Source of the DNA: an uncultured Planctomycetia bacterium
Lineage (GTDB): Bacteria; Omnitrophota; Gorgyraeia; Duberdicusellales; 4484-171
NCBI GenBank assembly: GCA_964483625.1
Contig: CAZABB010000005.1
Span: 15,571 to 79,570 of the forward strand
Reading direction: 5' to 3'
DNA length: 64,000 nt
Shown: piece after piece, positions 5,552 through 12,056 of the stretch
Position numbering within the stretch: position 1 is the stretch's first letter
Layout: each line of letters begins with the position of its first letter
The notes under the pieces: generated by a model
What the model saw: the letters and a program-made list of their open reading frames with translations, nothing else
What the model was told of the DNA's origin: nothing
Database searches by the model: none
Position numbers and translations under genes: made by a program

Positions 5552-6371
5552 AAAAATAGTTATTCTGATCCTTCTGCATACATTCCTGATGAGCGTGGCG
5601 CTCAGCTGTATCCTGCCCTTTTTATGGATGGTCAATGTTTCCTTCAAAACGCAAAGCGAGTTCGATGCCGATTACGGTCTGGTCATGGAAAAAGTATTAA
5701 ACTGGGAAAATTACCGTATCGTGTTTTTCGAGGAAGGATTCTGGGTTTATTTTCTCAACAGCGTTTTCTATACGTTTATTACCGTAATCCTTATCGTCCT
5801 GGTTTCATCCCTGGCCGCCTACGCTTTTTCCCGTCTTGATTTCTGGGGGAAGAACATCCTGTTCTACATGTTTCTGGGGGCGATGATGATCCCTCTGCCG
5901 GCGGGTTTTGTTCCCGTGTATGTACTCCTCAATAAATTTCACCTGGTAAACCGTACCGGATACGTGCTGGCAATGAGTAACATGGGATTGTCTTTGAGCA
6001 TGTACCTGTTAAAGACTTTTTTCGATCAGCTGCCGCGTGATTTGGAAGATGCTGCCCGTATTGACGGGTGCAACAAGCTTCAGACGTGGTGGAACGTGGG
6101 GCTTCCTTTGGTTGCCCCGGCGTTGGCGGTGGTTGTGATTTTCAATGCTCTCAATGTCTGGAATGAATTTGTTCTGGCATCATTGCTGTTTACCGACTAC
6201 AGTTTTATGCCGCTTCAGGTGGGGCTTATGGAGTTTTCCAATAAAATGGTAACCCAGCATACACTGATCATGGCGGCCCTTACGGTCGCGGCGATGCCGA
6301 TCATTCTTCTTTACATAAAAATGCAGAAACATTTTGTCAAAGGACTTACCGCCGGTGCGGTCGTAGGATGA
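5535..6371 (+). CDS. carbohydrate ABC transporter permease (MalG/UgpE-like)
   Basis: Multi-TM protein with an EDAARIDGC permease signature. Overlaps the upstream permease gene. Confidence 0.8.
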   Translation: MYYRAKKIVILILLHTFLMSVALSCILPFLWMVNVSFKTQSEFDADYGLVMEKVLNWENYRIVFFEEGFWVYFLNSVFYTFITVILIVLVSSLAAYAFSRLDFWGKNILFYMFLGAMMIPLPAGFVPVYVLLNKFHLVNRTGYVLAMSNMGLSLSMYLLKTFFDQLPRDLEDAARIDGCNKLQTWWNVGLPLVAPALAVVVIFNALNVWNEFVLASLLFTDYSFMPLQVGLMEFSNKMVTQHTLIMAALTVAAMPIILLYIKMQKHFVKGLTAGAVVG

Positions 6372-8809
6372 CCATGAAGTCACAAAGTCACAAGGTCACA
6401 AGGTCACACGTATTTATGATGAAATGCATTATCGGAGCGCTGGTGCTCTGGTGCGCAGGCGGTTCTGTTGTATGGGGGCAAGATGTGATTGAGGCTTCTG
6501 AAGTGAGAGAGAGTGAGCCGGCACCTGAGCAGAAGCAGGCGGAGCCGGAATCGGAAAAAACCTTAACCTCCGGCGACTATGTAAAACAGGCCTGGGCGGC
6601 TCAAGGTGCGGGGCAATGGGAGAAGGTATATGCGTTGGCTGATACGTGTATCGATATGTTTTCCGATGAAGCTGACCGGCTGGCTGCCGGCTTAACGGCA
6701 TTTCCCCCCAAAGGAGAAGAGGATACCTATGCGGTGATGAATGACGTCGCGGTATGTTATTTCATCAAGGGGGAGACCCTGCGTAATGAAGGGATGATCC
6801 TGAAGAATGAAGCCGATTCTTCTTTGACTGAAGGTAAGTTTGATGCCGCGGTTTCTGTCCTCAAAGAGGTAAGAGAACGGTATCCCTATGCTCAAGCGTT
6901 CGATCCCCGCGGCTGGTACTGGTCGGTAGAGGACAAAGCCGAAAAGGTTATCAATCAGATCACCGAAGGAGGCGGGTGTCCGGTCGAGGAAAATGTCATC
7001 GAAGAAGACGTGTTGATCACGCTTTACGATGAAGGCAGCGAGTTCCCTGTCGACTATACTGCCTACGGTGAGTTTACCGGCCGTGGCACCCGGGATTATG
7101 CCTATGAGATTGCCGATCCGATTGGTCTGGGTAAAGCCGTCGGAGAAGGTATTTACCCCAACAGTACGTCGCTTAAGTTCGATAGTGAGTTTACCAGGAT
7201 TAAGAAAGAGCTTTACCAGATAGATCACTGGGAAATTTTAAACAGCCGGGATATGCGTATGGCTTTTTACAAGTGGAATCTCGCTCCTGAACCGCAGGGC
7301 GTGAAATTATTTTATATCGCGACGATTTTAGAACGCAGCGGTTTAATCCGCCATGCCATTAAAGCCTACTATGCGGTGATGGTTCATTTTCCCAAGACCT
7401 ACGGCTGGACGTATTGGCACACGCCCTGGTATCCCGGTAAAGTCGCTCTGTACCGGATCAGAAGCCTTCTGCGTGAGCATCCGGAGTTGAACGTACGCTT
7501 GAAGGGGGCTTCGTTTGAAGTCGTCAACGGCTATGACAACAATATCCGTAACGATAAATTTATTGTGGATCCGGGCAGGTTAAGAAAGCTATCGTTCTGG
7601 GAAAAAATACGGTCTCAGCGGGAAAAGCCACGGTCTCTCTCCCATATCGTCCGGGAGAAAGGGAACGGAGCGGTGAAGCTGGTGCAGTATGAAACCGGCG
7701 ACTGGCAGCTTTTTGTCGAAGGAAAACCGTTCATGATCAAAGGTATTACCTATGACCCTACCCGGGTGGGAGAATCTCCCGATAACGGGACACTGGAGAA
7801 CTGGACCACGCAGGATGTCAATGGTAACGATATCATTGATGCGCCGTATGAATCGTGGGTCGATGCCAACGGGAACAATGCCCGTGATAAGAATGAACCG
7901 ATCGTGGGAGACTTTCAGCTCATGAAGGAAATGGGGGTCAATTGTATCCGCCTGTACCACCATCCCCGCCTTCCGGATAAAGAACTTCTGCGGCGCATGC
8001 ATGCTGATTACGGCATATATGTAACCTTGGGTGATTTCCTGGGGAAATATACTATCGGCAGCCAGGCGCCGTGGGCTCAAGGGACCGACTACGATAATCC
8101 CGAACATAAGAAAAATATGCTCGAAAGTGTAAAGAATATGGTGAATGAATTCAAGGAGGAGCCGTATATCCTGATGTGGCTTCTGGGTAATGAAAACGTC
8201 TATGGGTTGGGATGTAACGCCGATAAGAACCCGGAAAGTTTTTTTAAATTTGTCAATGAAGTGGCGTTGGTGATTAAATCTCTGGATCCTTATCAGCGCC
8301 CGGTTGCCGTTGCGTCCGGCGATATCCTGTTTCTGGATGTGTTCGCGAAATTCTGTCCCGATGTGGATATCTTCGGTGCCAATATTTATCGGGGGGAACG
8401 CGGGTTTCTGGATTTCTGGGATGAAGTTCGTCGTCAGCCGCAGATCGCCGCGATGATTACCGAATACGGGGCTCCCTCCTATGCCGAAGGGTATACTCAG
8501 GAGGAAGGTCAAGCGTATCAGGCTGATTATTTAGCTCATTGCTGGCAGGATATCCATTATAATTCGGCCGGATATGGGGCGGGGAACGCTCTCGGCGGTT
8601 TTGTGTTCGAGTGGCTTGATGAATGGTGGAAAGCCTATGAGCCGTTCTGTCACGACACCGCGCAATTGTCTGCGGGGCCTTTTTTGAGCGGATATTACCG
8701 TGAGGAATGGTTCGGGATCTGCGGCCAGGGGGATGGGGAGCATTCACCGTTTTTGCGCCGGCTCAAAAAAGCCTATTTCCGCTATAAAAAGCTCTGGAAT
8801 ACCCAATAA
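6368..8809 (+). CDS. secreted glycoside hydrolase, clan GH-A TIM barrel (GH2/GH5-like) with a ~400-aa N-terminal region of unknown function
   Basis: ATGA overlap with the permease stop. N-terminal signal peptide. LGNEN (acid/base NE) and ITEYG (nucleophile, like GUS ITEYG) motifs. FEWLDEWWK block shared with the paralogue at 10065. Alternative starts at 6374 and 6416. Confidence 0.65.
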   Translation: MTMKSQSHKVTRSHVFMMKCIIGALVLWCAGGSVVWGQDVIEASEVRESEPAPEQKQAEPESEKTLTSGDYVKQAWAAQGAGQWEKVYALADTCIDMFSDEADRLAAGLTAFPPKGEEDTYAVMNDVAVCYFIKGETLRNEGMILKNEADSSLTEGKFDAAVSVLKEVRERYPYAQAFDPRGWYWSVEDKAEKVINQITEGGGCPVEENVIEEDVLITLYDEGSEFPVDYTAYGEFTGRGTRDYAYEIADPIGLGKAVGEGIYPNSTSLKFDSEFTRIKKELYQIDHWEILNSRDMRMAFYKWNLAPEPQGVKLFYIATILERSGLIRHAIKAYYAVMVHFPKTYGWTYWHTPWYPGKVALYRIRSLLREHPELNVRLKGASFEVVNGYDNNIRNDKFIVDPGRLRKLSFWEKIRSQREKPRSLSHIVREKGNGAVKLVQYETGDWQLFVEGKPFMIKGITYDPTRVGESPDNGTLENWTTQDVNGNDIIDAPYESWVDANGNNARDKNEPIVGDFQLMKEMGVNCIRLYHHPRLPDKELLRRMHADYGIYVTLGDFLGKYTIGSQAPWAQGTDYDNPEHKKNMLESVKNMVNEFKEEPYILMWLLGNENVYGLGCNADKNPESFFKFVNEVALVIKSLDPYQRPVAVASGDILFLDVFAKFCPDVDIFGANIYRGERGFLDFWDEVRRQPQIAAMITEYGAPSYAEGYTQEEGQAYQADYLAHCWQDIHYNSAGYGAGNALGGFVFEWLDEWWKAYEPFCHDTAQLSAGPFLSGYYREEWFGICGQGDGEHSPFLRRLKKAYFRYKKLWNTQ
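6379..6410 (+). repeat. four tandem copies of the octamer GTCACAA(A/G) inside the 5' end of the glycosidase ORF
   Basis: Sequence agtcacaaagtcacaaggtcacaaggtcacac read directly. The unit length of 8 is not a multiple of 3. Confidence 0.9.
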
Positions 8810-8830
8810 AACAAAAGTTTGCCTCATACC

Positions 8831-11330: not shown

Positions 11331-11441
11331 TCCCTCTCGGTATAAAAAAATATTCTCGGACAGTTACGGCTATGATAAGATAGAAATACCTCAAGGCAAT
11401 CGCCGCCGGTGTTATGGTATGGATAGGCAGAAGGAGGATGT

Positions 11442-12056
11442 ATGGATGGTAGAATAATATTATGTATCTTAAGTATTCTTGTTCTTGCGGGCGGATGTAT
11501 GTCTCAGCCGGAAGATCTGCTGGTTGACGATTTTGAAGGAGAGATCAGCGCCGTTACGGTCGATTACGGAACGGGAGAAGGCTCCGGGGTGACCGTCGCG
11601 GCGGAATCCGAGGTCGTCCGGTGCGGAGATCAGTCATTGAAGATAACCTACAACCTGAGGCCTTCCGGATATATGTGGATCGCCCGGGGTTTTGGTTTAG
11701 ACGTCTCCGGTGCGGCCGCCTGGACAGTTTCGCCGGAAAATATCCCCTGGCGGGACTATAACGCGGTGAGCATTTTCATGTATGGGCAGAAAACGGGATC
11801 GGTTGTCGCGTTTGACGTGAAAGATTCCGGCGGCGAATACTGGCGATTCCTCCTGACGGATGATTTTACCGGCTGGAAGGAAATGGTTTGTCCTTTCGCG
11901 CATTTCTTCGTGCGTAACGACTGGCAGCCCGAAGATGCCGAAGTGAACGAAAGGATGGACTTCCCCATTATGAGTTTTCAATTTGAACCGCGCCTGCCCG
12001 GTAAAGGAGTATATTATTTTGATTGTGTGAAGGCAGTAAAAAGAAATATTCAATAG
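11442..12056 (+). CDS. lipoprotein with a single copy of the same beta-sandwich (CBM-like) domain
   Basis: Lipobox LAGGC. LKITYN / GWKEM / YYFD blocks align with LKISYS / EWEEY / YLDD in the 8915 repeats. Confidence 0.6.
   Translation: MDGRIILCILSILVLAGGCMSQPEDLLVDDFEGEISAVTVDYGTGEGSGVTVAAESEVVRCGDQSLKITYNLRPSGYMWIARGFGLDVSGAAAWTVSPENIPWRDYNAVSIFMYGQKTGSVVAFDVKDSGGEYWRFLLTDDFTGWKEMVCPFAHFFVRNDWQPEDAEVNERMDFPIMSFQFEPRLPGKGVYYFDCVKAVKRNIQ

Follow-up and report, generated by a model that had tools for sequence, protein, structure and literature searches.

A Gene Cassette Conserved across Omnitrophota Combines Clan GH-A Glycosidases, CBM-Like Proteins and a Sugar Importer: A Candidate System for Beta-Glucan Harvest

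Introduction

Several glycoside hydrolase (GH) families act on beta-1,3-glucans, among them GH157, GH158, GH72 and GH17 (PMC7157763; PMC10229575; PMC13195107). In GH158, the catalytic Asn-Glu pair and the nucleophile Glu have been established by mutagenesis or structure, and the TIM barrel is followed by an eight-stranded C-terminal Ig-like domain that shapes the cleft (PMC7157763; PMC13195107). Here we analyse a gene cassette from an uncultured bacterium of the candidate phylum Omnitrophota (GenBank assembly GCA_964483625.1, contig CAZABB010000005.1, positions 15,571 to 79,570 of the forward strand; this whole stretch of 64,000 nucleotides is called the window, and positions refer to it unless stated otherwise). 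The cassette encodes the binding protein and two permeases of an ATP-binding cassette (ABC) sugar importer, two paralogous secreted glycosidases of clan GH-A (813 and 421 aa), a secreted 386-aa protein made of two tandem domains that resemble carbohydrate-binding modules (CBMs), hereafter the tandem protein, and a 204-aa CBM11 lipoprotein. We lean towards the view that it is a conserved Omnitrophota operon for the extracellular or periplasmic harvest of a beta-glucan, combined with oligosaccharide import.

Omnitrophota are widespread, uncultured, ultra-small bacteria of debated lifestyle, described as sugar-transporting, glycolytic fermenters (PMC10066038; PMC8542988). A survey in Nature Microbiology reported sugar transport and glycolysis in most genomes and left glycosidases unmentioned (PMC10066038), and according to genome surveys the phylum has no enzymes for initiating the breakdown of polysaccharides (PMC8542988; PMC8359207). 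In one of them, covering 14 metagenome-assembled genomes (MAGs), enzymes for initial polysaccharide depolymerisation were said to be absent (PMC8542988); two of those MAGs, Candidatus Susulua stagnicola (L048) and Candidatus Gygaella obscura (L079), both from Ace Lake, carry the full cassette, which is not described in the Omnitrophota literature that we searched. A 2026 preprint mentions two "GH2" genes, _128 and _130, adjoining a giant gene (10.64898/2026.06.07.730766), and this numbering leaves room for one gene between them, matching the layout of the cassette.

Results

The cassette comprises seven genes, all in the same direction on the + strand, between tyrS (1976-3148) and an overlapping pair of Peptidase_Mx-like and ATP-grasp genes (12155-14208) (Table 1). 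An earlier interpretation of this DNA, made without database searches (the sequence-only reading), had taken it for a glycan-utilisation locus of the ABC type, in which two paralogous glycosidases of clan GH-A stand beside secreted beta-sandwich proteins that bind carbohydrate; this general outline is supported. The four open reading frames (ORFs) that it had proposed (813, 386, 421 and 204 aa) are all present on the + strand; the binding protein and the two permeases, which it had placed upstream of the large glycosidase, matched Pfam SBP_bac_1 and SBP_bac_8 (E about 1e-29) and twice BPD_transp_1; and the ATGA at 6368-6371, in which the stop codon of permease 2 overlaps the ATG of the 813-aa gene, agrees with the translational coupling that it had suggested.

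Table 1. Coordinates of the cassette genes and of the features within and around them
Feature	Position (nt)	Strand	Evidence or remark
Promoter-like site, TTGACA-16-TATAAT	3194..3221	+	sigma-70 consensus, 12/12 matches; consensus match alone
CUT1-type sugar ABC substrate-binding protein	3312..4655	+	lipoprotein-type signal VASGC; Pfam SBP_bac_1, SBP_bac_8
ABC permease 1, MalF/UgpA-like	4652..5551	+	Pfam BPD_transp_1; NCBIfam UgpA/MalF-type below cut-offs
ABC permease 2, MalG-like	5535..6371	+	Pfam BPD_transp_1; NCBIfam MalG-type E 6e-32, below cut-off
813-aa secreted clan GH-A glycosidase	6368..8809	+	NCBI start 6416, giving 797 aa
Helical TPR-like N-terminal domain of 813-aa enzyme	6563..7480	+	aa 66-371
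TIM-barrel catalytic domain of 813-aa enzyme	7748..8806	+	NE/TEYG align with GH158 NE/TEFG
Predicted acid/base N608-E609 of 813-aa enzyme	8189-8194	+
Predicted nucleophile E699 of 813-aa enzyme	8462-8464	+
Promoter-like site, TTGAAA-17-TATAAT	8831..8859	+	11/12 matches; ahead of 386-aa gene
386-aa secreted protein, two tandem beta-jelly-roll CBM30/CBM11-like domains	8915..10075	+	AlphaFold, self-alignment
N domain of 386-aa protein	8978-9523	+
C domain of 386-aa protein	9548-10072	+
421-aa secreted barrel-only glycosidase paralogue	10065..11330	+	31% identical to aa 436-813 of 813-aa enzyme
13-bp hairpin with T-run, directly 3' of 386-aa gene stop	10089..10128	+	RNAfold -24.8 kcal/mol, z -4.8
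Predicted acid/base N171-E172 of 421-aa enzyme	10575-10580	+
Predicted nucleophile E278 of 421-aa enzyme	10896-10898	+
204-aa lipoprotein, LAGGC lipobox	11442..12056	+	Pfam CBM_11
CBM11 module of lipoprotein	11520-12029	+

For the distribution of the cassette one genome per GTDB species was scanned, and relatives of the tandem protein turned up in at least 572 of these genomes; loci were compared for the best 79-80 of these. The close homologues all come from Candidatus Omnitrophota. Among the best 80, most are labelled Omnitrophota, about 20 "uncultured Planctomycetia" and a few "bacterium", and two contigs, both short, carry the names Bacteroidales and Deltaproteobacteria; the labels other than Omnitrophota are presumably placeholders or belong to mis-binned contigs. 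The order binding protein, permease, permease, 813-aa enzyme, tandem protein, 421-aa enzyme, on one strand, is kept in 38 of the 39 loci whose flanking DNA suffices for the comparison; L002 is the one that departs from it, having no 421-aa enzyme. The genes flanking the cassette differ between lineages. If the near relative L004 (83-89%; tandem protein 89% identical) is set aside, the 813-aa enzyme is 57-72% and the tandem protein 52-74% identical to that of the window, which is the range of rpsA (66-71%) and tyrS (61-64%) where these are visible in the same genomes. The relatives come from groundwater, lakes, marine waters, sediments and digesters, and the conservation is independent of habitat. 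The cassette is conserved phylum-wide at housekeeping-level identity and is not a niche locus; this fixation is the new information, the kind of system, an ABC-type glycan-utilisation locus, being already known.

Variants of the cassette occur in further loci. Locus L016 has two adjacent tandem copies of the tandem-protein gene, in L075 (8082-10829 of that locus) the counterpart of the 421-aa enzyme is 916 aa long with a C-terminal extension containing TPR_6, and in L008 an additional barrel-only ORF, which may be a split gene, lies between the large enzyme and the tandem-protein gene.

The 813-aa enzyme consists, in this order, of a signal peptide with an acidic linker, a helical domain resembling tetratricopeptide repeats (TPR-like), a short beta region and a (beta/alpha)8 barrel. 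In its AlphaFold2 model (pLDDT 86.8, pTM 0.85; numbering of the 797-aa form, to which 16 is added for the 813-aa ORF) the disordered signal and linker occupy residues 1-45, the helical TPR-like domain residues ~50-355 and, after the short beta region, the barrel residues ~445-797, with nothing past helix 8. The 421-aa protein is 31% identical over 417 aa to the C-terminal 380 aa of this enzyme (blastp, E 2.5e-56), which bears out the proposed paralogy, and inspection of the two proteins also recovered the NE acid, ITEYG and shared FEWxDEWWK motifs to which the sequence-only reading had drawn attention: GNEN (aa 607-610 of the large enzyme), TE(Y/F)G (within ITEYG, aa 697-701) and FEWxDEWWK (FEWLDEWWK and FEWTDEWWK) are common to both. 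The hallmarks of clan GH-A are all found, namely the (beta/alpha)8 barrel, an acid/base Glu preceded by Asn after strand 4 and a nucleophile Glu after strand 7. N592/E593 and E683 (797-aa numbering) are invariant in 57 orthologues of the large enzyme, and so are the predicted catalytic residues of the 421-aa enzyme in its 40 orthologues. Since the Asn-Glu pair and the nucleophile Glu align with those of GH158 and are invariant, both proteins are, judging from these sequences, very probably active retaining clan GH-A glycosidases.

The conserved TPR-like N-terminal domain of the large enzyme (about 300 aa) had no counterpart among the structural matches listed. Its local profile found three partial repeats in a metagenomic protein of 1,939 aa (P0359) and one in another protein (P0371).

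Both enzymes are most closely related, by sequence and by structure, to the beta-1,3-glucan families GH158, GH157 and GH72. The best PDB sequence matches of both are the GH158 endo-beta-1,3-glucanases 9oro and 6pal. With orthologue profiles, the 813-aa enzyme matched GH158 at 2.6e-12 and 1.7e-11 and a GH2 beta-glucuronidase at 1.2e-10, and the 421-aa enzyme GH158 at 3e-11 and 1e-9 and its best GH2 protein at 4e-6. Foldseek placed GH158 first (2e-11), followed by GH72 Gel4/Gas2 (7e-10 to 1e-7) and then GH2. In the structural comparison (score; identity) the GH157 laminarinase 9fz9 (28.0; 22%) was followed by GH2 (3fn9; 26.0; 17%), a GH5 mannanase (1rh9; 26.0; 17%), GH158 (9oro, 25.8 and, at 26%, the highest identity; 6pal, 25.0; 23%), GH72 Gas2 and Gel4 (23.4; 18-21%) and a GH17 laminarinase (22.1; 15%). 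The alignments to GH158(Pro) stop near Phe278, within the subsite set Trp77, Phe278, Glu285 and Tyr291. Past the nucleophile the 813-aa protein has just 114 aa, modelled as helix 7, strand 8 and helix 8, and the 421-aa protein 143 aa; the C-terminal Ig-like domain of GH158 was detected in neither enzyme by Pfam or in the AlphaFold2 model. Because this defining domain is absent, we do not file the enzymes in GH158.

Pfam matched Glyco_hydro_2_C and Glyco_hydro_72 in both enzymes. Glyco_hydro_2_C is the best Pfam match of the 813-aa enzyme (52.0 bits; 28.8 bits in the 421-aa enzyme; cut-off 21), and the GH72 match of the 421-aa enzyme (29.8 bits) is above its cut-off of 25.9. Together with the public names of orthologues, "beta-glucuronidase" or "GH2 TIM barrel", and the structural scores of GH2 close to those of GH158, the first of these matches could be taken to mean that the enzymes are ordinary GH2-type exo-glycosidases (beta-galactosidase, beta-glucuronidase or beta-mannosidase) acting on a beta-linked glycan other than a glucan. 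We regard this as the weakest of the explanations considered and as decidedly improbable. Glyco_hydro_2_C is a generic model of the GH-A barrel which matches non-GH2 proteins too, the Pfam scan gave no Glyco_hydro_2_N or Glyco_hydro_2 match, and the N-terminal 400 aa are mainly helical in the AlphaFold2 model, in place of the sugar-binding and Ig-like domains at the N-terminus of GH2 enzymes. None of the NCBIfam GH2 equivalog models came near its cut-off (15-34 bits against cut-offs of 544-2000, e.g., 33.8 against 999), GH158 outranks GH2 by five orders of magnitude for the 421-aa paralogue, and the partners of the enzymes, CBM11, the CBM30-like domain and its GH17 fusions, point to beta-glucans. 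The sequence-only reading had called the motifs GH2/GUS-like, which holds only loosely; the nearest families are GH158, GH157 and GH72, and because the N-terminal GH2 domains are absent the enzymes are not filed in GH2 either. We place them in no family and treat them as unclassified or borderline relatives of known ones.

The two halves of the tandem protein are homologous (45% identity; E 1.6e-45 with blastp, 7.7e-53 with hhalign), as had been expected of two copies of one domain. A model based on 56 orthologues (AlphaFold, pLDDT 90.9) shows a signal helix and two beta-sandwich domains, and the duplicated domain of about 180 aa has the beta-jelly-roll fold of the CBM30/CBM11 type. A Pfam scan of the protein gave no match, weak CBM30 matches occur in 12 of its 56 orthologues (best E 4e-5), and the profile of the tandem domain matched CBM30 chains of the PDB at E 0.06-0.08; the protein of the window has no match above the threshold of the CBM30 model. 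The domain is a remote CBM30/CBM11-like module with no Pfam model of its own, an unclassified or borderline relative of known families, and its fold is not new. The suggestion of an uncharacterised CBM family needs correcting: the duplicated domain has no Pfam model, but the fold is a known one and the domain of the lipoprotein belongs to the established family CBM11.

In a profile search of 1.84 billion representatives the duplicated domain was found in 2,885 clusters at E <= 1e-3 and in 689 at E <= 1e-30, with up to ten copies in one protein. Glyco_hydro_17 is the commonest co-occurring Pfam family, fused to the domain in 12 of the 61 multi-domain representatives scanned. At least six proteins (P0321, P0356, P0360, P0389, P0295 and P0359) carry the domain as an insert within a barrel homologous to the enzymes of the locus, the enzyme profile matching on both sides of the insert, and P0282 combines a barrel like those of the 813-aa and 421-aa enzymes with CBM_11 and the duplicated domain. 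The domain is therefore functionally tied to the enzyme family of the locus and to beta-1,3-glucan enzymes, and its fusions to GH17 and to such barrels lend indirect support to a predicted binding of beta-glucan chains.

The 204-aa lipoprotein had been thought to carry a third copy of the tandem domain, which is not the case. It contains a CBM11 module (Pfam CBM_11, 68.5 bits against a cut-off of 27, E 1e-18, positions 14-177 of 182 of the profile) and aligns end to end with the CBM11 of Clostridium thermocellum (1v0a, 2lro; residues 8-166 of CtCBM11, E 2e-5). With blastp it matched neither half of the 386-aa protein, and with hhalign the N-domain profile gave E 0.005 at a probability of 7% and the C-domain profile nothing. 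That the two belong to the same family by sequence was rejected on these results (blastp nothing, hhalign E 0.005 and 0.44). The lipoprotein and the tandem domains share the fold class alone, and the short motifs seen in both are equivalent strands of the common fold and no sign of one family. Among the 79 species loci the lipoprotein was found only in L004, the closest relative, and in L008, and it is a lineage-specific gene that joined the cassette recently.

Signals that may set the amount of tandem protein lie on both sides of its gene. Downstream of the promoter-like site at 8831-8859, and directly before the gene, is a strong Shine-Dalgarno sequence. Such a sequence precedes the tandem-protein gene in 69 of 73 relatives, and a promoter-like pattern, loosely defined, in 15 of 73; on the latter count an internal promoter was rejected as a general feature. 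Behind the gene, the hairpin with its T-run falls, in this lineage, on the part of the 421-aa gene that encodes the signal peptide. Hairpins followed by a T-rich tail lie within 110 nt of the stop of the tandem gene in 30 of 79 loci, as against 11 of 395 random windows; the hairpin occurs in L004 (11173-11216 of that locus) with the same stem and a different loop and in L005 (about 11168-11205) with a different stem sequence, and the structure is kept in relatives whose stem sequences differ. The hairpin may be a partial terminator or a 3' stabiliser. Because of the hairpin and the strong Shine-Dalgarno sequence in 69 of 73 relatives, we suggest that the tandem binding protein is made in excess over the 421-aa enzyme encoded downstream.

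The binding protein is of the CUT1 type, and the importer components seen are this family-1 protein and two MalF/MalG-type permeases. The nearest solved structures of the binding protein are oligosaccharide binders (NagB2, 2e-21, and binders of maltose and sophorose), and these matches are too generic, for which reason a specificity derived from solved relatives was rejected. About 90 nt 5' of the binding-protein gene lies the sigma-70-like site at 3194-3221; this putative promoter suggests that canonical -35/-10 promoters are used by Omnitrophota. The cassette contains no ABC ATPase gene, as the sequence-only reading had remarked, and an MsmK/MalK ATPase was found neither there nor among the larger ORFs of the window scanned against Pfam nor in L001 and L002. 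The sole ABC ATPase among those larger ORFs is PstB, and a 648-aa ORF outside the Pfam scan is, by its own sequence, of the ABC-F type. A shared ATPase, encoded elsewhere, would act in trans. Among the larger ORFs scanned no cytoplasmic beta-glucosidase or phosphorylase was found, and instead PstB, glycogen and housekeeping genes were; neither a TonB-dependent transporter nor a SusD gene, i.e., no SusC/SusD pair, was found in the cassette or its flanks.

The importer and the expression signals bear on the possibility that the cassette remodels or recycles a self-made envelope or coat glucan, the enzymes being mainly transglycosylases or trimmers in the manner of fungal GH72 Gas/Gel and bacterial GH17 enzymes, the tandem protein organising the polymer and the importer recycling its fragments. 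Phylum-wide conservation at the housekeeping level (38 of 39 loci; identities like those of rpsA and tyrS) fits a core function better than a diet, the Pfam GH72 (glucanosyltransferase) matches and the structural likeness to GH72 Gas2/Gel4 point in the same direction, as do the frequent fusions of the duplicated domain to GH17, a family that includes transglycosylases, and the Shine-Dalgarno sequence (69/73) and hairpin with T-run (30/79) suggest an abundant structural or binding protein. Nevertheless, we consider such a role unlikely, since no linked genes for glucan synthesis or export were found in the window or in the Pfam-annotated loci L001 and L002, the cassette always starts with an oligosaccharide importer, which is a hallmark of catabolic loci, and no beta-glucan in Omnitrophota envelopes is reported in the literature examined.

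The genes around the cassette bear on another possibility, namely that the target of the secreted proteins is a glycan on the surface or in the periplasm of the bacteria or archaea to which the ultra-small Omnitrophota are attached, the released sugars then being imported; this would be a special case of beta-glucan harvest with a glycan derived from the host. Omnitrophota have been inferred to be host-dependent, predatory or parasitic nanobacteria (PMC10066038), MAG surveys that saw few polymer-degrading genes proposed a dependence on other cells (PMC8542988; PMC8359207), and the "GH2" genes _128/_130 beside the giant gene were read as cell-wall-targeting (10.64898/2026.06.07.730766). The habitat-independent conservation would also fit. 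Against this, no giant, secretion or pilus gene was found among the larger ORFs of the window scanned against Pfam, the neighbours of the cassette vary between genomes, no glycan is known that all hosts would share, and nothing ties the enzymes to peptidoglycan or S-layer glycans, so that exploitation of host or prey cells, too, has a rather low probability in our estimate.

Other genes of the window were noted in passing. Directly downstream, at 12155-14208, the gene of a Peptidase_Mx-like putative zinc metallopeptidase (343 aa) overlaps that of an ATP-grasp protein resembling D-Ala-D-Ala ligase (341 aa); both genes have counterparts in L004, and L005 has one of the metallopeptidase-like gene. 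A response regulator/histidine kinase pair (24289-27130) precedes a phosphate-uptake cluster (27733-32580) with a Porin_5 outer-membrane porin, a PBP_like_2 binding protein, two permeases and a PstB-type ATPase. A glycogen (alpha-glucan) cluster at 45757-49955 encodes a GT4/GT5 starch-synthase-like enzyme, a DUF4912 protein and a GH57 branching enzyme with BE_C, in agreement with the glycogen storage reported for Omnitrophota.

Discussion

Beta-glucan harvest with oligosaccharide import is the function that we favour, by a modest degree, for the cassette. The analysis shows which genes are present, the paralogy, the folds, that the catalytic residues are kept, the synteny across the phylum and the domain fusions, and on this footing the following course may be proposed. 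The secreted tandem CBM30/CBM11-like protein, and in this lineage likewise the CBM11 lipoprotein, would bind the glucan chain, presumably outside the cell or in the periplasm. The chain would then be cleaved by the two retaining GH-A enzymes, the 813-aa protein with its helical N-terminal domain and the barrel-only 421-aa protein, perhaps with a division of labour between them. The lipoprotein CUT1 binding protein and the two permeases would import the oligosaccharides, powered by an ATPase from elsewhere, and the imported sugar would enter the sugar-fermenting metabolism described for the phylum. Since GH157, GH158, GH72 and GH17 all act on beta-1,3-glucans, a beta-1,3-linked or mixed-linkage glucan is the leading, if still tentative, candidate for the substrate, with somewhat less than an even chance in our judgement.

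Several points weigh against this proposal. The enzymes resemble GH158 weakly, at E about 1e-11 and with 19-26% identity along part of the barrel; the glucans associated with CBM30 and CBM11 are beta-1,4 and mixed-linkage ones and not pure beta-1,3-glucans; and the nearest solved relatives of the binding protein take chitin-, malto- and sophoro-oligosaccharides, which indicates nothing specific. The cassette has neither an ATPase nor a cytoplasmic enzyme that would cleave the oligosaccharides. Finally, loci for a specific nutrient are not usually conserved at the housekeeping level across habitats, and for this reason the variants with a host or prey glycan and with a self-made coat glucan stay alive: the substrate may be host-derived or self-made instead.

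A more far-reaching interpretation, to which we give a small chance, is that the cassette represents the core means by which the phylum feeds on or attaches to other cells, the unclassified GH-A and CBM30-like families having co-evolved for one beta-glucan that all Omnitrophota meet. This glucan would belong to the envelope or periplasm of host or prey, or to the coat of the Omnitrophota themselves, and the tandem protein would be an abundant, near-invariant surface component. If this were true, the host dependence of Omnitrophota would become testable with three recombinant proteins.

If the activity predicted for the favoured function, beta-glucan harvest, holds, Omnitrophota would have a means of harvesting glucan that is universal in the phylum. 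The enzymes would probably define a new subfamily or family in CAZy, and the duplicated domain a CBM family, at present without a model, of about 2,900 sequence clusters. Where the glucan comes from would also bear on the question of host dependence.

Comparison with Described Systems

The closest described enzymes are those of GH158, i.e., BuGH158 (6pal) from the 1,3-glucan utilisation locus of Bacteroides uniformis and GH158(Pro) (9oro). Both cassette enzymes share with them the clan GH-A barrel with aligned NE and TE(F/Y)G motifs, both have them as top matches in the PDB sequence searches (E 1e-9 to 1e-12) and in Foldseek, and in both systems the enzymes are encoded in a glycan-utilisation locus beside glycan-binding proteins, which in the GH158 loci are surface proteins. 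Unlike GH158, the cassette enzymes, at 19-26% identity over part of the barrel, are without the C-terminal Ig-like domain, and the 813-aa enzyme bears a helical and beta N-terminal extension of about 400 aa. Whereas the GH158 locus works with SusC/SusD, the cassette uses an ABC importer, and the activity of its enzymes is predicted.

The likeness to GH157 (Labilibaculum antarcticum 9fz9; BcellWH2_01931) is at the level of the fold only: the overall architecture differs, and GH157 was absent among the matches listed in the PDB sequence and profile searches of the cassette enzymes. GH72 (yeast Gas2p, Aspergillus Gel4) is a fungal family; the match to it spans the first half of the barrel only, and the cassette enzymes are without CBM43 or glycosylphosphatidylinositol (GPI) features.

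Among binding modules, the tandem protein is closest to CBM30 and CBM11 of C. thermocellum cellulases (2c24, 1wmx, 1v0a), with 20% identity to CBM30 and 13% to CBM11. In C. thermocellum these modules are appendages of enzymes, whereas the tandem protein is a stand-alone two-domain protein that has no Pfam match and whose ligand is predicted.

As a system, the cassette resembles the ABC-type ("Gram-positive type") polysaccharide utilisation loci (PULs), and with its glycan binders also the beta-glucan surface glycan-binding proteins (SGBPs) of Bacteroides, in that extracytoplasmic glycosidases, non-catalytic glycan binders and an oligosaccharide importer are combined in one operon; a shared ATPase encoded elsewhere, as in the ABC-type PULs, is likely for the cassette as well. 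It differs from them in having no linked regulator gene or cytoplasmic processing enzyme, and, whereas ABC-type PULs are patchy and variable between strains, the cassette is a fixture throughout a candidate phylum, with identities at the housekeeping level.

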